64,000 nt of DNA from the NCBI GenBank assembly GCA_045536535.1, contig JAZSNS010000031.1:64934-128933 (forward strand). The letters are read 5' to 3'. A model generated the notes under the pieces. The model was not told where the DNA came from and ran no database searches. It saw only the letters and a program-made list of their open reading frames with translations. Both the position numbers and the translations under genes were made by a program. Positions 27,292-43,051 of the stretch are shown one piece after another; position 1 is the stretch's first letter; each line of letters opens with the position of its first letter. This DNA is from Eubacteriales bacterium. Its GTDB lineage: Bacteria > Bacillota > Clostridia > Oscillospirales > CAG-382.

Positions 27292-27366
27292 GAGCTGGTG
27301 GAGGGATTTGAACCCTCGGCCTATTGATTACGAATCAATTGCGCTACCCCTGCGCCACACCAGCAT
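27292..27366 (-). tRNA. tRNA-Thr (anticodon CGT), CCA encoded
   Basis: Hand-folded cloverleaf: acceptor GCTGGTG/CACCAGC, D stem GCGC/GCGC, anticodon stem ATTGA/TCAAT with loop TTCGTAA, T arm GAGGG-TTCAAAT-CCCTC, discriminator T, CCA. Confidence 0.92.
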
Positions 27367-32769: not shown

Positions 32770-32796
32770 AAAAAGACGGCAAGAGCCGTCTTTTTT
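32770..32796. terminator. bidirectional rho-independent terminator
   Basis: AAAAA-GACGGC-aaga-GCCGTC-TTTTTT between convergent nadE and dfx. Confidence 0.8.
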
Positions 32797-33296: not shown

Positions 33297-34325
33297 TTAG
33301 AGTTTATCTGCAATATCATAGATAAGTGTTTCGGTCTTTTCCCAACCAAGGCAGGGGTCTGTGATCGATCTGCCGAAAACGTGTTCCCCGATTTTCTGCG
33401 AACCGTCTTCGAGATAGCTTTCTATCATCAGGCCTTTGACCAGCGATCTGATATCGGAGTTTTGGTTACGGCTCGAAACGATCTCGTTTGCAATACGTAT
33501 CTGTTCAAGATAACGTTTGCCGGAGTTGTTATGGTTTGTATCGACGATAACCGAGGGATTTTCTAGCCCTGAGGTGCTGTAAAGATCATGAAGTTTAAGC
33601 AGATCTTCATAATGATAGTTAGAAACGCTCTTCCCCGAAAAATCAAGATAACCTCTGAGAATTGCGTGAGCATAAGGGTTGCCGTTGCTCTTGACTTCCC
33701 AGCCGCGATAGATGAAGGTATGACTTCCCTGCGCTGCATGGATCGCATTCATCATGACCGACATATCGCCGCCCGTCGGATTTTTCATACCGACAGGAAC
33801 ATCAAGTCCGCTCGCGGTAAGACGATGCTGTTGATTTTCAACCGAACGTGCGCCGACGGCGACATAAGCAAGCAGATCGGAAAGATAACGGTGGTTTTCG
33901 GGATAAAGCATCTCATCGGCACAAGTAAAGCCATAATCTTTAAGGGCGCTCATGTGAAGTTCGCGGATAGCGACGATGCCTTTATACATATCGGGTTTTT
34001 CCTCGGGTTCGGGCTGATGAAGCATGCCTTTATAGCCCTCGCCCGTCGTGCGCGGTTTATTTGTATAAATGCGCGGGATTATGAGTATTTTATCGTTAAC
34101 TTTGTCCTGAACTTTACGAAGACGCGAAATATATTCAAGAACGGGCTCGCGGTGATCGGCAGAACAAGGCCCGATTATAAGCAGGAATTTATCAGATTCG
34201 CCCGAAAAAATGCTTCGGATCTCTTTATCACGCTGAATCTTTACAGCTTCCATTTCCGGGGTCACGGGATAATCTTGTTTTACCTGTTGAGGGATGGGGA
34301 GTTTGCGGAAGAATTGCATATTCAT
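33297..34325 (-). CDS. 3-deoxy-7-phosphoheptulonate (DAHP) synthase, class I
   Basis: 342 aa with LLIIGPCS, KPRT and GMKN motifs of type-I-alpha DAHP synthases. It is the last gene of the aro operon. Confidence 0.95.
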   Translation of the reverse strand: MNMQFFRKLPIPQQVKQDYPVTPEMEAVKIQRDKEIRSIFSGESDKFLLIIGPCSADHREPVLEYISRLRKVQDKVNDKILIIPRIYTNKPRTTGEGYKGMLHQPEPEEKPDMYKGIVAIRELHMSALKDYGFTCADEMLYPENHRYLSDLLAYVAVGARSVENQQHRLTASGLDVPVGMKNPTGGDMSVMMNAIHAAQGSHTFIYRGWEVKSNGNPYAHAILRGYLDFSGKSVSNYHYEDLLKLHDLYSTSGLENPSVIVDTNHNNSGKRYLEQIRIANEIVSSRNQNSDIRSLVKGLMIESYLEDGSQKIGEHVFGRSITDPCLGWEKTETLIYDIADKL

Positions 34326-34358
34326 AATTATTGCCTCTGTATATATTTAAAAAAGATC

Positions 34359-35225
34359 TCACAGTTTTTTCTTTTTATCGAATTTGCGTCGGCGCTCAGT
34401 CGAAAGGCGCATCATTTCGCGCATTGTTTCACGGTCGCCGTCTTTTATTGTGTCATAAAGTTTATCAAACGTGTTTCGATAGTTATCCATTTCTGCCAAA
34501 AGCGTCTCGCGGTTTGACAAAAACAGTTCGCTCCACATTTCATCGTTGATATTTGCAATACGTGTCAGGTCGCGAAAAGAGTCGCCCGTATAGCGTTCGA
34601 GGTCGGGGGCATCGCAAGCGCACATGAGAGAAACCGCAATGCAATGGGTAAGTTGCGAAAGAAACGCGATCATTCGGTCGTGCATCTCGGGACTCAGCAC
34701 CGATATTTCGCGAAAGCCGAGAGTTTCGCCCAGATCGCCGCAAAGTTCGACCGTATCAAGCGAATTTTTTTCGGTAGGAACTATTATATAATTCGCGTTT
34801 TTGAATATGGATTCATCGGCATATTCAACACCGGCGGTTTCTTTGCCCGCCATCGGATGGGCGGAAATGAACTCGACACCCTCAGGCAGGAGCGATTGGA
34901 TCTCATAAACGATGCACTGTTTAACACCCGTTACGTCGGTTATAACGGTTTTTGGGGTTATCAAATGAGCGTTTTCTTTTATCCACTCGACAAAAACGTG
35001 AGGATAAAGAGCGAACACGATTATGTCGGCTTCGGCAATAAGTTCGGGATCAACAAAAGCGGAACCTTTTGTTATAAGGTTATGTTCAAGCGCGTAATCA
35101 ATCGTCGACTGTTTGCGCGTTATCGCGGTTACGTAATAACCCTGTCGGGTAAGGCTCTGGGCATAACTGCCGCCGAGAAGACCCAATCCTACGATAAGTA
35201 TTTTTTTGGATTTATCAATTTTCAT
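34359..35225 (-). CDS. tyrA: prephenate dehydrogenase
   Basis: N-terminal Rossmann motif ILIVGLGLLGGS and HPMAG motif. Confidence 0.92.
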   Translation of the reverse strand: MKIDKSKKILIVGLGLLGGSYAQSLTRQGYYVTAITRKQSTIDYALEHNLITKGSAFVDPELIAEADIIVFALYPHVFVEWIKENAHLITPKTVITDVTGVKQCIVYEIQSLLPEGVEFISAHPMAGKETAGVEYADESIFKNANYIIVPTEKNSLDTVELCGDLGETLGFREISVLSPEMHDRMIAFLSQLTHCIAVSLMCACDAPDLERYTGDSFRDLTRIANINDEMWSELFLSNRETLLAEMDNYRNTFDKLYDTIKDGDRETMREMMRLSTERRRKFDKKKKL

Positions 35226-36423
35226 TAATCTCTATTCCTACGTTAAGGTTTTTTAGGACATCAAAGAAATCGGGATAACTTTTTGAGACCGCCTCAGCAC
35301 CCTCGATAACACCACCCGTCAGCGTTAACAGAACAGAAAGCGCCATAACGATTCGGTGGTCATTATGTCCGAAAAGCGGTTCGGACGGAGGGACAAGCGT
35401 TGCCGATCCGATCAAAACATGGTTTTCGCCGACCTCAACGGGAATCCCGAATTTCAAAAGTTCGGTTTGCATTGCAACTCCGCGATCGCTTTCCTTGATG
35501 CGCAAGCGCGAAGTTCCGTTGAACCTCACGTTTCCGACAAGCGATGCCATCGCAAACAGGATCGGGGCCAGATCGGGGCAATCCGAAAGATCAAATTCAT
35601 TTATTCCCTCTTTCATGCCTTTGAAAATATCGGCATAAACACGATCGCCTTGGAGAGTTTCGGGTGAAACACCGCAAACCTCAACATCTCCGCCAACAAA
35701 GTTAAGCGCGTCCAAAAACGCGGCGTTCGAGCAATCGCCCTCGACAAAATATTCACGATTTTGATAACTTTGGTTGCCGAAAATGATAAAACGGTTGCCT
35801 GCGTGCGTGATTTTTATGCCGAAATAAGAAAGCACGTTTAACGTCAGTTCAATATAAGACGCGCTCTCCAATTCCCCGATGATTTCGATAATGCTCAGCC
35901 CGTCAAGCAGAGGAAGCGCGAAAAGCAAACCCGAGATAAACTGACTCGATATATCGCCGCGAATCTTAAAGTTGCCGCTTTTGAGTTTTCCGCAGACGGT
36001 GAGTGAATCTTCGCCCTTTTCAAAAAGAATTCCTTGTTCGCGGCATATATCTTCATAGATCCCCAACGGGCGTTCAAAAAGACGTTTGCTGCCTTTTAAA
36101 ACCACTCTTTTTCCTGTTAGCAGACAAAGCGGTATCAAAAAACGCAGAGTGCTTCCGCTTTCATCACAAAACAATTCGGTATTATCATTGATCGCAGAAA
36201 AATCAAGTTTACATAATTCGATTTCGTTGCCGTTCGATGAAAAATTTGTTCCAAGCGATTCAAGGCAGGAAAGAGTTGCCGCGATATCTTTTGACTGCGA
36301 CACGTTTTTCACAACGCTTCCACCCGCAAGTGCGCCGCAGATGAGCGCGCGATGTGCTAAACTTTTTGACGGCGGTGCAAAAACTTTTCCGGATGCCTTT
36401 GAGGGGATAATTTTAACCTTCAT
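35215..36423 (-). CDS. aroA: 3-phosphoshikimate 1-carboxyvinyltransferase (EPSP synthase)
   Basis: PSKSLAHRALI, ESGSTLRF and DHRIVMA motifs. Start is at ATG 36423 (MKVKIIPS), abutting the aroQ stop. The track start at 36519 lies inside aroQ. Confidence 0.95.
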   Translation of the reverse strand: MKVKIIPSKASGKVFAPPSKSLAHRALICGALAGGSVVKNVSQSKDIAATLSCLESLGTNFSSNGNEIELCKLDFSAINDNTELFCDESGSTLRFLIPLCLLTGKRVVLKGSKRLFERPLGIYEDICREQGILFEKGEDSLTVCGKLKSGNFKIRGDISSQFISGLLFALPLLDGLSIIEIIGELESASYIELTLNVLSYFGIKITHAGNRFIIFGNQSYQNREYFVEGDCSNAAFLDALNFVGGDVEVCGVSPETLQGDRVYADIFKGMKEGINEFDLSDCPDLAPILFAMASLVGNVRFNGTSRLRIKESDRGVAMQTELLKFGIPVEVGENHVLIGSATLVPPSEPLFGHNDHRIVMALSVLLTLTGGVIEGAEAVSKSYPDFFDVLKNLNVGIEINEN

Positions 36424-36424
36424 T

Positions 36425-36859
36425 TTATTCTCCGTGAATTCCGATAAGATAATCAATTGCCTCCAAATAACCGTCAATGCCTTTTCCGACGACCGTCTTC
36501 TGACAATACTCGCGAACATAACTTATCTGACGGTATGATTCACGCTTTGAAACATCGGAGATATGAACCTCAACCGCAGGGATCGAAACGCATTTCAATG
36601 CGTCCAAGATCGCGATGCTCGTATGTGTATATGCGGCGGGGTTGATGATGATACCGTCAACACAGCCATAAGCGTTTTGAATTTTTTCAACAATCTCGCC
36701 CTCATGGTTTGATTGAAAAATTTCAATCTCGATTCCCTTTTCGTTAGCGTTGGCATTTATCAACTCACAAAGGTCGTTATAGGTTTTATTTCCGTATACA
36801 GAGGGCTCGCGGATACCGAGCATATTAAGATTCGGGCCGTTGATCACAAGCAATTTCAT
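36425..36859 (-). CDS. aroQ: type II 3-dehydroquinate dehydratase
   Basis: MKLLVINGPNLNMLGIREPSVYG...FQSNHEGE...NPAAYTHTS. Confidence 0.95.
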   Translation of the reverse strand: MKLLVINGPNLNMLGIREPSVYGNKTYNDLCELINANANEKGIEIEIFQSNHEGEIVEKIQNAYGCVDGIIINPAAYTHTSIAILDALKCVSIPAVEVHISDVSKRESYRQISYVREYCQKTVVGKGIDGYLEAIDYLIGIHGE

Positions 36860-38094
36860 TTTTGAAAATCCTCCAAAATCATGTCTGCGTTACGGTCTGC
36901 ACCATCGACACAGCAGATCTGTTTATCGCAACATGAAAGATATATTTCATAGCGTTCGTTAAAACGTTTTTCGAGTTCATCACGGTTGGAAGAAAGAGGT
37001 CGGTCGTCCGACGGTTTGATATCATCAAGCGCGCGGTCAAGGAAATACAGACGACCGTTTTCACGCAGGAGTTCAACATTCTCTTCTCTTAAAATCGCGC
37101 CGCCGCCGGTTGAGATGATCTTACCTTGAAGCGCGGAAACGCGCCTGATGACCTCGCTTTCGATATCGCGAAAGGCTTTTTCGCCATGAATTCTGATCAA
37201 TTCATCGGCGGTTTTTCCGACGGTCTTTAAAATTTCTTCATCGGTATCGACGAATTCCCTGCCTGTTTTTTCTGCAAGATATCTGCCCGTTGCAGTCTTT
37301 CCGCAACCCGGCATTCCTATTAAAACGATATTTTGTTTTGCGGCAAAAAGTTCATTGAAAATCTTTTCGAGTTTTTCGTTTTCGACAGATCTTCCGACAA
37401 ACAACTCGGCCGCAAAAGCAGCTTGAGCAACGAGCATATAAAGCCCGCCGACAGCATTTATGCCCTTTTTCAAAGCATCGTTAACAAGTTTTGTGCGAAG
37501 CGGGTTATAGACAACGTCAATGACGCTTGAAAGTTTCGGAAACGCGTTGATATCGACCGCGCCGACGCCGAGTTCGGGATACATTCCGCAAGGCGTTGTG
37601 TTTATTATCACATCGGCATCACGATGTTTCCCGAGAGTTTCGTCGTAGGTAAGGCAACCGTCTCTGCCGCTGCGGGAAACACGGCGGACCTCACTGCATT
37701 TGAGTTTTTCCGCGACGTAGCATGCGGTTTTTGAAGTGCCGCCGCTACCCAAAACGATAACCTTCTTATTTTTTAATTGAATTCCGCTTTTTTCGATAAG
37801 CGCCAGCATTCCAAAAACATCGGTATTAAATCCGAAAAGTTTTCCTTGGCGGTTGACGACCGTGTTCACCGCTCCTATGATCTTCGCGGTTTCATCGACG
37901 GAATCAAGGTATGGAATGACAGACTCTTTATAGGGGATCGTTACGTTTATCGCAGAAAAATCGCGTTCTGTCATAAAAGTTTCAAGTTCTTCGGGCGCGA
38001 GCGATTTCAGCTCATAATCATAACCGAAAAGCGATTTGTGTATTTCCGCAGAAAAGCTGTGACTTATCTTTTCGGCAATCAAACCGTATTTCAT
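36856..38094 (-). CDS. bifunctional shikimate dehydrogenase / shikimate kinase fusion
   Basis: The N-terminal ~270 aa are AroE-like (INVTIPYK, GAVNT, VLGSGGTSK). The C-terminal ~165 aa are AroK-like (IVLIGMPGCGKTATG Walker A, DTDEEI). Start is at ATG 38094 in an ATGA overlap with the aroC stop. Confidence 0.92.
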   Translation of the reverse strand: MKYGLIAEKISHSFSAEIHKSLFGYDYELKSLAPEELETFMTERDFSAINVTIPYKESVIPYLDSVDETAKIIGAVNTVVNRQGKLFGFNTDVFGMLALIEKSGIQLKNKKVIVLGSGGTSKTACYVAEKLKCSEVRRVSRSGRDGCLTYDETLGKHRDADVIINTTPCGMYPELGVGAVDINAFPKLSSVIDVVYNPLRTKLVNDALKKGINAVGGLYMLVAQAAFAAELFVGRSVENEKLEKIFNELFAAKQNIVLIGMPGCGKTATGRYLAEKTGREFVDTDEEILKTVGKTADELIRIHGEKAFRDIESEVIRRVSALQGKIISTGGGAILREENVELLRENGRLYFLDRALDDIKPSDDRPLSSNRDELEKRFNERYEIYLSCCDKQICCVDGADRNADMILEDFQK

Positions 38095-39182
38095 AGCGCC
38101 AACCAATCCGTTCCGTGCTTCACCGAAAGCGCATCGGCAATGACAAGCGCGGTGACGCAATCCACAACGATTCTTGCACGGTGAACGACACAGGGATCGT
38201 GTCTGCCGCCCGCCGCGAGAGTTGCGTTTTCTGAGTTTACATAATTAACCGTATTTTGTTCTTTGGAAATTGTCGGTGTCGGGCGAAGAGCGCAACGGAA
38301 AATGATCGGCATTCCGTTCGTGATACCGCCGTTTATGCCACCGGAATTGTTGGTTTTTGTAAACACGTTCCCTTTTTCGGCGTAAAACTCGTCGTTCGCG
38401 TTCGAGCCGTACATTTCGGCGAAACCGAAACCTGCACCAAACTCTACCGCTTTGACCGCAGGGATCGAGAACAACGCGTGAGAAAGCAAGCCTTCGACGG
38501 TGTCAAACCAAGGTTCGCCAACTCCTGCTTCGACGCCGATAACGGCGGTTTCAAGCGATCCGCCGAGGCTATCGCCGTTGTTTTTTGCTTCGATGATTTT
38601 CGATTGCATCTGTTCAGCCGAAGTTTCATCAAGAACGGCAAACGAAAGTTTCGACAGTTTTTCGATATCCGATTTGAAATCGCCGAAATCGCGGTCTTGA
38701 ACGCCGCCGATGTTCTTAATATGCGTGCCGATATATATTCCTTTTTTATTAAGCGCGGGAATCAAAATCCCGCCGGCGGCAACGAGCGCCGCAGTGACAC
38801 GTCCGCTGAAATGGCCGCCGCCGCGATAATCTTCAAAGCCGCGATACTTTACATGAGCGGTATAATCGGCATGCGACGGACGCGCAAGGCAGGACACGGT
38901 GTTATAATCATTTGAGTTTTTATCGTTGTTCGGGATAGTGATACAGATCGGAGCGCCGTTCGTAAAGCCGTTGAACACGCCGCTTTGAATAACAAACTCA
39001 TCTTCTTCGCGTCGTGCGGTTGAAACCGAGCCCGAAGGACGGCGCAGCGCAAGAAGCGCGCGGATCTTAGCATCATCAACGGGAATGCCTGCGGCAACAC
39101 CGTCAAGCACAAAGCCGACGGACGGGCCGTGGCTTTCTCCGAAAATCGTAAGCGTTATATTTGTTCCAAACGTATTTTTCAT
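38091..39182 (-). CDS. aroC: chorismate synthase
   Basis: FGESHG, RPSHADY and GGRHDPCV motifs. Confidence 0.96.
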   Translation of the reverse strand: MKNTFGTNITLTIFGESHGPSVGFVLDGVAAGIPVDDAKIRALLALRRPSGSVSTARREEDEFVIQSGVFNGFTNGAPICITIPNNDKNSNDYNTVSCLARPSHADYTAHVKYRGFEDYRGGGHFSGRVTAALVAAGGILIPALNKKGIYIGTHIKNIGGVQDRDFGDFKSDIEKLSKLSFAVLDETSAEQMQSKIIEAKNNGDSLGGSLETAVIGVEAGVGEPWFDTVEGLLSHALFSIPAVKAVEFGAGFGFAEMYGSNANDEFYAEKGNVFTKTNNSGGINGGITNGMPIIFRCALRPTPTISKEQNTVNYVNSENATLAAGGRHDPCVVHRARIVVDCVTALVIADALSVKHGTDWLAL

Positions 39183-40195
39183 TTTGCGAGAACCTGCCTT
39201 ATCATCATTTCAAATTCGCTAAACGGCATTTTTTTGAATTCAAATTCGCCTATTTCGGGGACATAAACCGCTGTGATATCCGTTCCTGTGAGTTTTTTAT
39301 CATGTTTGCAGGCGTTGATTACCGTTTCGATATCCTCGCCCGAGAATTCATAAGGAAGCGAAAGTTTTTTCAAAACGGCGACCAGTTTTTCCCTGACACG
39401 GGGCGAACACATAGGGACCATTCCGATCGCCACACATTCGCCGTGATAAAGATTTCCCATACCGTTTGCGCTTTCGATCGCATGAGCAAGAGTGTGACCG
39501 AAGTTAAGAACACGGCGCAAGCCCGATTCCCTCTCATCCGCTTCGACAATTCTCTTTTTCACAAGAAGCGAGCGTTCGATGATTGTGTCGATTTCTTTAT
39601 CAATATCCCCGTTTTCAAAGATATCAAATAAAACAGAATCGCTTGTGAGTGACATCTTGACAGATTCTGCGATACCGTTCGACAGTTGGCGTTCGGGGAG
39701 GGTTTTAAGCGTTTCGGGGTCGATAACGACCCTTTTCGGCGGATAAAACGCACCAACGATATTTTTGATCCCCATAAAGTCGACCGCGGTCTTTCCGCCG
39801 ACAGAAGAATCGACCTGAGAAAGAAGAGTCGTGGGGATATTGTAAAAATCAATACCGCGCATATATGCACTTGCCGCAAAGCCCGCAAGGTCGCCGACAA
39901 CTCCGCCGCCGACAGCAACGACGCAATCGCTTCTTGTGAAGTCGTTTTCGACCATTTTTTTGAGCAAAAGTTCAAAGTTGGAAAGGTTCTTTGAAGCTTC
40001 GCCCTGCTCGATCACAACCGTCACTGCAGATTTGCATTGTTTGGCAACGGTTTCGGCATATTCAGAAGGTACTCCGTCATCGGTAACGACCAAAACCTTG
40101 CGCGAAAGCGAAAGATATTTCTCAACTTTTAAAATCGCACCACGTTCAAGAACGATATCGTAACCGCCCGATAATGTTTTTACGGGTATAAGCAT
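39179..40195 (-). CDS. aroB: 3-dehydroquinate synthase
   Basis: GGGVVGDLAGFAA, GGKTAVD and FGHTLAHAIE motifs. Confidence 0.95.
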   Translation of the reverse strand: MLIPVKTLSGGYDIVLERGAILKVEKYLSLSRKVLVVTDDGVPSEYAETVAKQCKSAVTVVIEQGEASKNLSNFELLLKKMVENDFTRSDCVVAVGGGVVGDLAGFAASAYMRGIDFYNIPTTLLSQVDSSVGGKTAVDFMGIKNIVGAFYPPKRVVIDPETLKTLPERQLSNGIAESVKMSLTSDSVLFDIFENGDIDKEIDTIIERSLLVKKRIVEADERESGLRRVLNFGHTLAHAIESANGMGNLYHGECVAIGMVPMCSPRVREKLVAVLKKLSLPYEFSGEDIETVINACKHDKKLTGTDITAVYVPEIGEFEFKKMPFSEFEMMIRQVLAK

Positions 40196-40213
40196 ATATA
40201 CACTCCAAAATGT

Positions 40214-41302
40214 TTAGATTTTAATTTCCTTTTCGTAGCTTGCAATGATTTTAACGTTATTGCAGCAACCTTCCAGATCGGCAAGCATCGCTTTACCCTC
40301 GAACGTCCCCAAATTGCCCTCGCCTTCGGCATAGAAATAATAGTCCCAAACGAGGTCTTTTGTAGGACGGCTCTTCAAAGCGCGGAGATTAAATCCGTGT
40401 TCGCCGATAACCGACACCGCTTTGCCGAGCGAGCCTGCAACGTTTTTTACGGTGAAGAGCATTATGAAATGCTTATCGTTCGCGGCATATTCACGGTGGT
40501 TTTTCGAAAAGACGGCAAAACGTGTTGTATTTGTGCCGCTTTCGTTAATTCTCCCTTCGAGTTTTTCAAGGCCGAACTTCAAAGCCGCTTCTTCGCTTGC
40601 GATCGCCGCGATATCATGACTTCCCATTTCGGCAACTGTTTTTGCCGCAACGGCGGTATTGACAGCCTCGACGGTTTCAAAACCGTGTTTTTCGATATAA
40701 GAAGCACATTGCCCGAGCGCTTGCGGATGGCTTATAACCCGTTTTACTTCATCAATCGTTGTTCCCTTTATCGCAAGCAGGTTCTGAACGACCTCGGCTT
40801 CATAAACACCGTTGATATAAAGGTCTCCGAAAAACGCAAGATCAAGCACCTTTCCGACATCGCCGTTGAAACTGTTTTCAACAGGCAAAAGAGCACAATC
40901 GCATTCGCCCGAGAGAGCGGCGTTATAAGCGGCGTCGAAAGAGGGGTAACCGACACAGGTCGCATCGGGAAAGATCCTTTCGGCCGCAATATTTGCAAAC
41001 GCGCCTTCAACACCGCTGTAAGCAACGCGCATTCCATCGAGAATACGGTGCTGAAACTTTTTGGAAACATCTATCGTACTTTTCAGAAAATCAATGTAAT
41101 AGGAGCGGTAATCGTCAGACGATATCATTTCGGAGTTACGTTTGATTACCTCGGCTTCCCTACCGGGATCATCAACGGGAATTCCGTGTTCCTTTTTATA
41201 GTCTGCAACCATTCTGACCGCATCCATACGCTGTTCGAACAGATGCGCGATCTCTTTATCGGTCGCGTTGATGATATTCCTCGCTTTATCAAGTTCGGTC
41301 AT
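40214..41302 (-). CDS. pheA: bifunctional chorismate mutase / prephenate dehydratase (P-protein)
   Basis: N-terminal AroQ-class chorismate mutase helix (IDKEIAHLFEQRMD), a PDT domain (TTRFAVF) and a C-terminal ACT domain (GSLGKAV..ESRP-like SRPTK). Confidence 0.94.
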   Translation of the reverse strand: MTELDKARNIINATDKEIAHLFEQRMDAVRMVADYKKEHGIPVDDPGREAEVIKRNSEMISSDDYRSYYIDFLKSTIDVSKKFQHRILDGMRVAYSGVEGAFANIAAERIFPDATCVGYPSFDAAYNAALSGECDCALLPVENSFNGDVGKVLDLAFFGDLYINGVYEAEVVQNLLAIKGTTIDEVKRVISHPQALGQCASYIEKHGFETVEAVNTAVAAKTVAEMGSHDIAAIASEEAALKFGLEKLEGRINESGTNTTRFAVFSKNHREYAANDKHFIMLFTVKNVAGSLGKAVSVIGEHGFNLRALKSRPTKDLVWDYYFYAEGEGNLGTFEGKAMLADLEGCCNNVKIIASYEKEIKI

Positions 41303-41333
41303 TTGAAAACATCTCCTTCAAATGGGTTTATTT

Positions 41334-41382
41334 AAAACAAAAAATCCGCCACCATTATGCAAAGAAAGCATAGCGGATGCGG
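41334..41382 (-). terminator. leader (attenuator) terminator upstream of pheA
   Basis: Minus strand: CCGCATCCGCTATGC-tttcttt-GCATAATGGTGGCGG-A-TTTTTTGTTTT. The imperfect stem has 12 pairs including one G-U. It lies between the leader ORF and the pheA RBS. Confidence 0.6.
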
Positions 41383-41406
41383 ACTGCCGTTTGGTATGAA
41401 CAAAAA

Positions 41407-41475
41407 TCAAGCGTTCAGAGCAGACGAGCAGTCCTTTTTAAAATAATAAAAATAGCGGTATGAATTAAAGAACAT
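41407..41475 (-). CDS. candidate Phe/Tyr-rich leader peptide MFFNSYRYFYYFKKDCSSALNA
   Basis: 22-codon ORF, below the ORF-track cutoff. AAAGGAG sits 8 nt upstream of the ATG. Eight of residues 2-12 are F or Y. It lies between a consensus promoter and a terminator, directly upstream of the aro/pheA/tyrA operon. Confidence 0.55.
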   Translation of the reverse strand: MFFNSYRYFYYFKKDCSSALNA

Positions 41476-41515
41476 CTCGTTTACTCCTTTCACAAATCAA
41501 TCATTTTATGCACAC

Positions 41516-41544
41516 ATAATAGTACAATTTCCACGATTTGTCAA
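41516..41544 (-). promoter_or_regulatory. sigma-A-type promoter of the aro operon leader
   Basis: Minus strand: TTGACA (41544-41539), 17-nt spacer, TATTAT (41521-41516). Confidence 0.55.
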
Positions 41545-41617
41545 GAGGAAAATTCCATTTCCCAACCTTCTTTTTCACGCTCGGGTGGATATTTCGACGT
41601 CTTTAAACACATGACAC

Positions 41618-41646
41618 TTGATTTTTATCTCACTTTGGTATATAAT
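41618..41646 (+). promoter_or_regulatory. sigma-A-type promoter for citrate synthase
   Basis: TTGATT, 17-nt spacer, TATAAT. Divergent from the aro promoter. Confidence 0.5.
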
Positions 41647-41689
41647 CGTTTTGTATAAATTTTCACTTTAAAGAAAGAGAGGCAAAAGA

Positions 41690-43051
41690 TTGAAAAAGTC
41701 CTATTCCGCTATTACACCTTACATTGCCGAAATGGCTGAACTTTCGTGCAACAACAACAGAATAGAACCTGCGATGTATGCAGAGCACCGCGTTAACAGA
41801 GGTTTGCGCGATATGAACGGCAACGGTGTTGTTACCGGCCTGACCGAAGTTTCTAAAATCAAGGCAAAAGAAGTTGACGAAAACGGAAACGCAGTTCCTT
41901 GCGAGGGACAGCTTTGTTATCGCGGAATCGACGTTCGCGATCTCGTCAACGGATTCAGATCAGACGACAGATTCGGGTTTGAAGAAACGGTTTATCTTTT
42001 GCTTTTCTCCGAACTTCCGAACACTCAGCAACTCAAACGATTCTCGAAAGAACTTTCGGATTATCGCAGTTTGCCGAAATCCTTCGTTCGCGATATGATT
42101 CTCAAAGCGCCCGGAAAGGATATGATGAATATTCTTTCGCGATCGGTTCTTGCGCTTTATGCTTATGACGACAATCCCGACGATATTTCTATCCCGAACG
42201 TTTTAAGACAGAGCATGCAGATGATCGCAATGTTCCCTCTTCTTGCGGTTTACGGTTATCAGTCATACATTCATTATCACAGAGGCAAAGACCTGCACAT
42301 TCGACTTCCCAAACCCGAGTTTTCGACAGCAGAGAACCTTTTGCATCTGCTTCGCAAAGATGGCGAATTTTCCGATCTTGAAGCAAAAATACTTGACCTT
42401 GCCATGGTTCTCCATGCCGAACACGGCGGCGGTAACAACTCGACATTCACAACACACGTCGTCACCTCTTCGGGCACCGACACCTATTCCGCAATCGCGG
42501 CGGCACTCGGTTCGCTCAAAGGTCCGCGTCACGGCGGCGCGAACATAAAGGTCGTTAAGATGTTTGAGGACATGAAAAAGCACGTCAACGTTAAGAAAAC
42601 GGGCGAAATCGAAGATTATCTCGTTAAGCTTCTCGACAAGCAGGCGTTTGACAACGCCGGTCTCATTTACGGCATGGGACATGCGGTATATTCCCTCTCC
42701 GACCCCAGATCGGACATTTTGAAGGAATGTGCGAAGATGCTCTCTACCGAAAAAGGTCGCGCCGAAGAATACGCTCTCTATGAAAAGGTTGCAAAACTCG
42801 CACCTGAGATAATCGCCGAAAAGCGCAGAATGTACAAAGGCGTCAGCGCAAACGTTGACTTTTATTCGGGTCTTATCTACAAGATGCTCAACATCCCCAA
42901 CGAACTTTACACTCCGATTTTCGCCGTTTCGAGAATTGCGGGTTGGAGCGCACACAGAATCGAGGAAATTCAGAACGCGGGCAAGATCATTCGTCCTGCA
43001 TACATAGCCGTTAAGAACGACAGAGATTACGTGCAGCTCAAACAAAGATAA
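41690..43051 (+). CDS. citrate synthase family enzyme
   Basis: 453 aa with a TTG start after AGAGAGG. Catalytic-region motifs are HAEHGGGNNSTF, GPRHGGAN and GMGHAVY. Confidence 0.93.
   Translation: MKKSYSAITPYIAEMAELSCNNNRIEPAMYAEHRVNRGLRDMNGNGVVTGLTEVSKIKAKEVDENGNAVPCEGQLCYRGIDVRDLVNGFRSDDRFGFEETVYLLLFSELPNTQQLKRFSKELSDYRSLPKSFVRDMILKAPGKDMMNILSRSVLALYAYDDNPDDISIPNVLRQSMQMIAMFPLLAVYGYQSYIHYHRGKDLHIRLPKPEFSTAENLLHLLRKDGEFSDLEAKILDLAMVLHAEHGGGNNSTFTTHVVTSSGTDTYSAIAAALGSLKGPRHGGANIKVVKMFEDMKKHVNVKKTGEIEDYLVKLLDKQAFDNAGLIYGMGHAVYSLSDPRSDILKECAKMLSTEKGRAEEYALYEKVAKLAPEIIAEKRRMYKGVSANVDFYSGLIYKMLNIPNELYTPIFAVSRIAGWSAHRIEEIQNAGKIIRPAYIAVKNDRDYVQLKQR

Follow-up and report, generated by a model that had tools for sequence, protein, structure and literature searches.

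The leader of an eight-gene aromatic amino-acid operon, located on the minus strand of the 64-kb stretch of Clostridia DNA analysed here (the window), very probably functions as a classical ribosome-mediated transcription attenuator, as judged from its conservation and its modelled folding. The leader contains a small open reading frame (ORF) rich in phenylalanine (Phe) and tyrosine (Tyr) codons ahead of an intrinsic terminator, and the operon behind it carries the common pathway together with the Phe and Tyr branches. By computation the parts of the leader, their conservation, the coding signature of the ORF, the covariation of competing helices and the dependence of the fold on the position of the ribosome were established. 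Attenuation by leader peptides is textbook knowledge in Proteobacteria and known in Actinobacteria, but Firmicutes, which mostly rely on T-boxes and proteins, seldom use it. On sequence grounds the leader is a new sequence family without a match in Rfam, with a mechanism of an already known kind. It adds a well-supported and widely conserved aromatic amino-acid leader family in Oscillospiraceae and Acutalibacteraceae, abundant inhabitants of rumen and gut, most of which are uncultured.

The leader ORF and its conservation

The original prediction, made from the window sequence, had placed a promoter, a Shine-Dalgarno (SD) sequence with an ATG, a 22-codon ORF rich in Phe and Tyr, a hairpin with a U-tract and the pheA ribosome binding site one after the other on the minus strand, and each of these parts was recovered at its place (coordinates in Table 1). 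The promoter matches the consensus at 11 of 12 positions and ranks top of 19 promoter-like sites in the 10 kb scanned. Only its predicted spacing to the leader SD had to be corrected, as the -10 hexamer and AAAGGAG are separated by 25 nucleotides (nt) and not by about 34; from the end of the -10 hexamer to the leader ATG the distance is 40 nt. The leader transcript probably starts about 7 nt past the -10 hexamer, just 5′ of the leader SD, and would measure roughly 165 nt up to the U-tract. The mini-ORF is unannotated and encodes MFFNSYRYFYYFKKDCSSALNA, in which 8 of residues 2-12 are Phe or Tyr. The terminator hairpin is GC-rich and imperfect (-17.1 kcal/mol) and its U-tract has the form U6GU4.

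Conservation was analysed by scanning one genome per GTDB species with the window PheA, which yielded 80 loci and, with the window, 81 sequences. The PheA proteins of these relatives are 67-86% identical to that of the window, and the carriers are uncultured Oscillospiraceae, Acutalibacteraceae, 'Ruminococcus', 'Faecousia' and Clostridia metagenome-assembled genomes, mostly from the ruminant and human gut. Conservation of a Phe/Tyr-rich mini-ORF at orthologous operons was one of the points on which the original prediction was to stand or fall, and an SD-preceded mini-ORF of this kind with a terminator was present at the operon head in 76 of 81 species-level genomes (73 at a threshold of 6 of 10 on the operon strand and three more at a slightly lower threshold). 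Additionally, metagenome contigs were scanned with an exact pattern of the RNA core, which gave 16 matches, 14 of them genuine leaders. The remaining two (L088 and L094, on contigs Ga0164315/Ga0164313) are matches to a degenerate pattern without a Phe/Tyr leader ORF and look like chance.

Two arrangements prevail among the genomes. The leader directly precedes pheA in 31 of them, at a distance of 90-110 nt as in the window, and in 45 a class I/II aminotransferase gene stands between the leader and pheA-aroB-aroC. Behind the 14 metagenome leaders the first gene is an aminotransferase gene, pheA, a DAHP synthase gene or a chorismate-mutase-only gene. Since the leader is kept ahead of pheA, aminotransferase or DAHP synthase, the module tracks the start of the operon and not one particular gene. 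The promoter is conserved as well: a match of at least 10 of 12 was present in 70 of 73 related loci, with 17-nt spacing in all displayed examples (intragenic controls mostly reached 6-8), and the distance from the end of the -10 hexamer to the leader ATG was 30-43 nt in 72 of 73.

Some metagenome loci differ in detail. A DAHP synthase gene behind the leader was identified by Pfam in L083, L086 and L092, and is only suggested in L090 and L096 by an ORF of about 342 amino acids in front of a PheA-sized ORF of 362 amino acids, which matches PheA in L090. Between the terminator and the start of the first long ORF, L086, L090 and L096 have about 200-430 nt. In L093 (394-496 and downstream) the ORF behind the leader is short and matches only residues 1-87 of PheA, its chorismate mutase domain; aroB comes next, which makes this a fourth arrangement of the operon head.

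For five of the 81 sequences no leader was found. Two of these contigs end too early, and three (L015, L045 and L059) are truly without it; in them a consensus TTGAC(A/T)-17-TATAAT promoter stands 35-45 nt ahead of pheA, and leader, terminator and any Rfam family are missing. Rfam searches on four loci without a found leader returned nothing relevant. In the three species attenuation looks to have been lost, as far as the sequences indicate.

A chance origin, in which an AT-rich intergenic stretch happens to contain a Phe/Tyr-rich frame beside a hairpin, is of negligible probability. Stretches with 6 Phe/Tyr codons of 11 are indeed common in the window (16 sites), and spurious Phe/Tyr-rich mini-ORFs turn up elsewhere in related loci. 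However, a density of at least 8 of 11 was reached at one site only in all six frames of the 64-kb window, which is the leader, and nowhere across 50 composition-preserving shuffles of the window. Recurrence in 76 of 81 genomes together with covariation refutes a chance origin.

The coding signature of the ORF was analysed on a MAFFT alignment of 72 leaders. Phe and Tyr account for 64% of the codons between the start and the structured segment, with 227 TTT, 183 TAT, 69 TAC and 45 TTC among 819 codons, and Tyr and Phe codons contribute 3.5 and 3.8 per leader, respectively. Trp codons are absent from all 72 leaders, as the original prediction had noticed for the window peptide. The six codons at positions -7 to -2 before the anchor codon are nearly all T[T/A][T/C], with frequent synonymous swaps (e.g., TAC 35 versus TAT 28 at one position) and likewise frequent interchange of Phe and Tyr (TTT/TAT). 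Tyr predominates at positions -6, -4 and -3, while Phe is found at residue 2 in 48 and at residue 3 in 37 leaders. The start column holds ATG in 64, GTG in 4 and TTG in 4 leaders, and the SD motif (GGAG/GAGG/GGTG) occupies the same alignment columns throughout. The downstream anchor GGRCUG always begins 5 nt past the last Phe codon, and 71 of the 72 leaders have it in one and the same frame. In 71 of 72 the distance from ATG to the anchor falls into classes of 32, 35, 38, 41 or 44 nt, which differ by multiples of three. The peptides range from 17 to 29 residues. A tetranucleotide UUUA is invariant: the last Phe codon is UUU and the next codon starts with A in 72 of 72 leaders (alignment columns 66-69; window 41442-41439). 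Neither the pairing model nor a coding requirement explains it.

The conserved ORF with its SD would also be expected of a functional small hydrophobic peptide, with the hairpin as an ordinary terminator or processing site unrelated to sensing. This explanation is most improbable. The peptide shows little conservation beyond the Phe/Tyr run, and the conservation of its C-terminal 'DC(S/P/L)' is accounted for by the RNA pairing GGRCUG:CAGUCC, in which D/G swaps (GAC/GGC) merely trade A-U for G-U. Moreover, the terminator sits between the promoter and its own operon, and because the upstream neighbour, a citrate synthase gene, is divergent, it ends no upstream gene.

Competing helices and ribosome position

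Four regions of the leader can pair in three mutually exclusive helices (1:2, 2:3 and 3:4), and these covary in the sequences of the family. The covariation analysis of orthologous leaders that had been suggested with the original prediction supports all three.

Helix 2:3, the putative antiterminator, is the only consensus helix returned by RNAalifold on the alignment (GGACUG.CC with GG.CAGUCC), and its core is the GGACTGC/GCAGTCC pairing already pointed out in the original prediction. In the window GGACUGC(U)CGU (41434-41424) pairs with ACGGCAGUCC (41390-41381). Over the family (columns 83-93 with 158-168) the 11 pairs are 88.4% paired versus 28-41% when slid, compensatory changes occur at 6 of 11 pairs (70 cells), and the score was reached in 0 of 500 column shuffles. 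The energy of the antiterminator stem-loop is -21.3 kcal/mol in the window and -26.5 kcal/mol on family average. An apical hairpin within it contains the stop codon of the leader ORF in 96% of the 72 leaders, and its mean z-score is -2.7. The convincing antiterminator that could not be folded by hand for the original prediction was thereby resolved as the 2:3 stem-loop with the stop codon in its apical hairpin, joined by the 1:2 anti-antiterminator.

The base of the terminator 3:4 comprises 6 pairs, which are 90.7% paired with compensatory changes at 4 of 6, and the U-tract is present in 72 of 72 aligned leaders.

The anti-antiterminator 1:2 pairs GGAGUA.ACGAG..GUUCUUU with AAAGGAC..CUCGU.UGCUCU in the window (-21.2 kcal/mol). 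Its register differs between subfamilies (ACGAG:CUCGU, ACGGA:UCCGU, AGACA:UGUCU and ACACAGA:UCUGUGU), and therefore an alignment-free duplex test was used. The family mean was -19.3 kcal/mol (z = -3.5 versus shuffles, 93% below -2). With a non-self region 2 the mean was -14.3 kcal/mol compared with -19.3 kcal/mol for the own partner, and the median rank of the own partner was 4 of 72. A fixed register on the MAFFT alignment gave a weaker signal that was still above all controls, with only 66% paired, 111 compensatory cells and 0 of 500 shuffles reaching the score. For 1:2 the alignment-free duplex test is better evidence than the single-register column model. Helix 1:2 pairs a median of 7 of the 9 nucleotides of the SD window. 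The helices compete for shared nucleotides, with a median of 8 in region 2 common to 1:2 and 2:3 and a median of 3 in region 3 common to 2:3 and 3:4.

The minimum free energy (MFE) structure of the naked window RNA contains 1:2 and the terminator, and the same combination was obtained for 65% of the 72 leaders. For the ribosome-position model only the RNA 3′ of the leading edge of the ribosome (P site +15) was folded, and this was done for the 72 leaders at every position of the A site. An A site on codons -8 to -4 of the run left the antiterminator in the MFE structure of 85-96% of leaders; once it had moved to -3 or further, or stood at the stop codon, 86-100% of leaders formed the terminator. 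It follows from these position-dependent folds that the regulatory run spans the positions at which a stalled ribosome frees region 2. Folding with the leader masked, as suggested with the original prediction, was undiscriminating in the form of a masked footprint, and it was folding of the RNA 3′ of the ribosome that gave the switch. Equilibrium folding in ViennaRNA with the footprint merely masked was set aside, as 1:2 closes around the ribosome in it, which is physically implausible.

Proposed mechanism and comparison with known systems

In the proposed mechanism transcription would begin at the conserved promoter and a ribosome would load onto the leader SD and translate the mini-ORF. When charged Phe- or Tyr-tRNA is scarce, the ribosome would stall in the run (codons 2-3 and 6-10 in the window) and region 1 would be masked or held apart from region 2. 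A stall at codons 2-3, which lie inside region 1, would mask it directly; during a stall at codons 8-10 region 1 is presumably kept off region 2 as well. Region 2 (GGACUGCUCGU, starting 5 nt past the last Phe codon), being free during the stall, could then pair with region 3 (ACGGCAGUCC) once this has been made. With the three bases that open the terminator stem drawn into the antiterminator, RNA polymerase would proceed into pheA. When both tRNAs are charged, the ribosome would cross region 2 and reach the stop codon in the tip of the antiterminator, 2:3 would be blocked, the terminator 3:4 would form and transcription would end at the U-tract. In an untranslated leader the SD and start would be tied up with region 2 in helix 1:2, again leaving the terminator to form, so that the default state is predicted to be off. 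Read-through would in this way respond to the charging of tRNA-Phe and tRNA-Tyr, and the attenuator would couple the whole Phe/Tyr operon to the supply of both.

The sensor fits the product, because the operon makes Phe and Tyr and not tryptophan (Trp), and because a class I/II aminotransferase gene leads the second arrangement. The content of the operon was confirmed by Pfam as originally predicted, with the common pathway, pheA and tyrA present and no trp genes in the operon.

The same attenuator may sense Phe only, the Tyr codons being filler or the outcome of a constraint on the RNA or the peptide. This is the less expected outcome, although there is some precedent for it: in Corynebacterium glutamicum a Phe-Tyr-Phe leader before aroF is described as responding to limitation of Phe and not of Tyr (PMC11802643, citing Neshat et al. 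2014). In the present family the last codon of the run is invariably UUU and codons 2-3 are usually Phe, which would also suit a Phe sensor. On the other hand, Tyr codons are about as frequent as Phe codons, positions -6, -4 and -3 are mostly Tyr with synonymous TAT/TAC swaps, several Tyr codons lie within the stall window that yields the antiterminator, and the operon carries tyrA besides pheA. Sensing of both Phe and Tyr would account for these features.

A different class of explanation assumes that a trans-acting RNA-binding protein, an uncharged tRNA or a small ligand reads the UAU/UUU tract and that the mini-ORF is incidental. Attenuation by TRAP or T-boxes is the usual solution in Firmicutes (PMC2965389), a U/A-rich triplet repeat could in principle bind a protein, and the invariant UUUA after the run is unexplained by pairing. 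The Rfam searches argue against this explanation. At E-values up to 10 neither a T-box nor Phe_leader nor a riboswitch was found in 41200-41750, the best hit being a spurious U12 (E = 0.069), and at gathering thresholds over the whole window nothing was found at the leader. A T-box, of which the original prediction had seen no core, was rejected on the missing Rfam match and on a T-box sequence regular expression that was empty upstream of the window pheA; across the related loci the same expression gave one stray match only, 581 nt upstream in L067. Neither a specifier nor a T-box element was seen in the leader transcript. Furthermore, the tract is always in frame with an SD-preceded start, indels come in multiples of three, ATG, GTG and TTG alternate at one column, the T[T/A][T/C] variation is codon-periodic and the stop codon stays in the apical hairpin in nearly all leaders. 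Such codon-level features are unexpected of a binding site that is not translated, and a trans-acting reader is accordingly rated very unlikely.

Several points weigh against the translated Phe/Tyr attenuator as proposed. Given the C. glutamicum result (PMC11802643), dual sensing cannot be assumed. The nucleotides shared by antiterminator and terminator are few, with a median of 3 nt. In the window itself the hairpin around the stop codon is weak (-3.1 kcal/mol, z = -0.6). The shuffle controls keep phylogenetic relatedness in. The ribosome-position model assumes that RNA on the 5′ side of the ribosome is unavailable for pairing with the 3′ side, and masked-footprint folding fails to reproduce the switch over the 72 leaders. 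By a rough estimate, a ribosome stalled at codons 8-10 might still be spanned by the outer part of 1:2. Finally, three related species (L015, L045 and L059) manage without the leader.

The Escherichia coli pheL-pheA attenuator resembles the present leader in having a small ORF with an SD and many end-product codons before a chorismate mutase/prephenate dehydratase gene, and an antiterminator ahead of an intrinsic terminator, with the fold chosen by the position of the ribosome (PMC3082878). Attenuation of the pheL/pheA type, as originally proposed, thus held for architecture and logic, which conservation, covariation and folding support, and did not hold for the RNA family. Membership in the enterobacterial Rfam family Phe_leader was rejected, as its covariance model was unmatched even at an E-value of 10, and no sequence or structure similarity to pheL was detected at this level. 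Further differences are that the present leader interleaves Phe and Tyr codons whereas pheL has Phe only, that it controls eight genes with the common pathway and both branches whereas pheL controls pheA alone, and that its host belongs to the Clostridia and not to the Gammaproteobacteria. In classical leaders the regulatory codons lie inside region 1. Here region 1 is the leader's own SD and start, most regulatory codons are in the loop between regions 1 and 2, and, in contrast to the trpL and pheL paradigm, the stop codon lies in the tip of the antiterminator.

A more specific reading can be put forward tentatively, although it is rather doubtful: an independently evolved dual-input attenuator with a self-gating start, combining OR logic over Phe and Tyr, a single co-transcriptional interrogation and regulatory codons in the 1-2 loop. 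If the dual-input part were true, starvation for either Phe or Tyr would open the common pathway and both branches, and the placement of most regulatory codons in the 1-2 loop would be a topological variant of the trp/phe paradigm. If self-gating were true, 1:2 would bury the SD and start, so that only a ribosome loading before region 2 is made could respond to the signal. A transcript would then be probed a single time, and one that escapes translation would be held in the off state.

Two further aromatic leaders are known from published descriptions. The C. glutamicum leader peptide AroR, upstream of aroF, is similar in function, with a mixed Phe/Tyr peptide, a shikimate-pathway operon and ribosome stalling; as described, only Phe limitation mattered (PMC11802643). 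It is likened to the present leader by function alone; it is from Actinobacteria and has a Phe-Tyr-Phe triplet only versus the 6-9 Phe/Tyr codons here. The candidate upstream ORF uORFC-13-1 precedes aroF and has 24 representatives in Acholeplasma and unknown organisms (PMC8632094). According to this description, by which alone it was compared, it has a promoter, ribosome binding site, start, a Phe-encoding U-run and a terminator directly after it, all before a DAHP synthase gene. It belongs to Bacillota in the broad sense, and DAHP synthase also follows the leader in some of the metagenome loci described above. It differs in that 'at least one' Phe codon is specified and Tyr codons are unmentioned; a relationship to the present leader is nevertheless conceivable.

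Leader peptides were long thought to be absent from Firmicutes (PMC2965389). Histidine leaders have been predicted upstream of hisZ/hisS in bacilli (PMC2965389) and in the Bacillus cereus group, Peptostreptococcaceae and Erysipelotrichales (PMC9413887), and a leucine-rich ilv-leu attenuator peptide is reported in Staphylococcus aureus (PMC5794164). These share the principle and the phylum with the present leader and likewise stand in place of the usual T-box or repressor, but they concern other amino acids, operons and lineages, none of them aromatic and none from Oscillospiraceae or Acutalibacteraceae. T-boxes share the decision between terminator and antiterminator and the tRNA-charging signal; they read uncharged tRNA without translation, whereas a codon-conserved ORF is present here. 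In the literature searched, outside of which most subscription papers fell, a Phe/Tyr leader was nowhere described for Clostridia, Oscillospiraceae or Ruminococcaceae.

With a covariance model made from the alignment of 72 sequences, the leader could be annotated in many metagenome-assembled genomes, and the ratio of terminator read-through in metatranscriptomes would flag Phe/Tyr starvation of these bacteria. The family would be a clean case of convergent evolution of attenuation logic, in which the module keeps its leading place in operons with different first genes. With its compact size (about 165 nt, by rough estimate) the leader is also a candidate engineering part that may respond to two amino acids.

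Operon, neighbouring genes and minor features

Table 1. Features of the leader, the operon and its surroundings in the window (protein functions assigned by Pfam)
Feature	Position	Strand	Description
Sigma-70-type promoter	41516..41544	-	-35 TTGACA 41544-41539, 17-nt spacer, -10 TATTAT 41521-41516
Leader SD AAAGGAG	41484..41490	-	8 nt ahead of ATG at 41475
Leader ORF	41407..41475	-	22 codons + TGA (41409-41407), MFFNSYRYFYYFKKDCSSALNA
Extra Phe codons	41472-41467	-	codons 2-3 of leader ORF
Regulatory codon run	41440..41460	-	codons 6-12, UAC CGC UAU UUU UAU UAU UUU (Y R Y F Y Y F)
Region 1	41467..41487	-	GGAGUA.ACGAG..GUUCUUU; SD, spacer, start codon, codons 2-3; 5′ strand of 1:2
Region 2	41417..41437	-	AAAGGAC UG CUCGU C UGCUCU; codons 13-20; partner region 1 or region 3
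Antiterminator apical hairpin	41397..41417	-	UGAACG ... UGUUCA; encloses stop UGA 41409-41407
Region 3	41381..41390	-	ACGGCAGUCC; 3′ strand of antiterminator; last 3 nt (UCC) form terminator stem base
Intrinsic terminator, regions 3:4	41334..41383	-	stem-loop 41383-41345 (UCCGC..CCG.UAUGC / GCAUA.UGG..GCGGA), U-tract UUUUUUGUUUU 41344-41334
pheA start signals	SD 41319-41313; ATG 41302	-	SD GAAGGAG
Regulated operon, eight genes	33297..41319	-	pheA-aroB-aroC-aroE/K-aroQ-aroA-tyrA-DAHP synthase
pheA	41302-40214	-	chorismate mutase-prephenate dehydratase-ACT domain
aroB		-	3-dehydroquinate synthase
aroC		-	chorismate synthase
aroE-aroK fusion	36856-38160	-	one ORF, shikimate dehydrogenase N-terminal domain + shikimate kinase domain
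aroQ		-	type II dehydroquinase
aroA		-	EPSP synthase
tyrA		-	prephenate dehydrogenase
DAHP synthase gene	34325-33297	-	last gene of operon
Terminator-like hairpin	32770..32795	-	past last operon gene; 11-bp stem, top-ranked terminator-like site
Citrate synthase gene	41690-43051	+	divergent upstream neighbour
tRNA gene	27293-27364	-	sole Rfam family in whole window at gathering thresholds

The ORFs as listed overlap by 70 nt between aroC and aroE-K and by 95 nt between aroQ and aroA, and due to these overlaps some start codons probably lie further downstream. The hairpin past the DAHP synthase gene is likely the end of the operon.

A 10-bp hairpin on the SD and AUG of pheA (41324-41300, minus strand, -7.6 kcal/mol) was considered as a second, translational control and rejected. 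Its z-score versus shuffles is -0.6 in the window, it is unconserved in 27 related loci (mean z = -0.2), and a function is improbable. Neither further leader-peptide-like mini-ORFs nor a second GGRCUG...CAGUCC module turned up when the 64-kb window was scanned for them. Upstream of the leader, a promoter-like site of the citrate synthase gene (10/12, 41618-41646, plus strand) lies back to back with the leader promoter.

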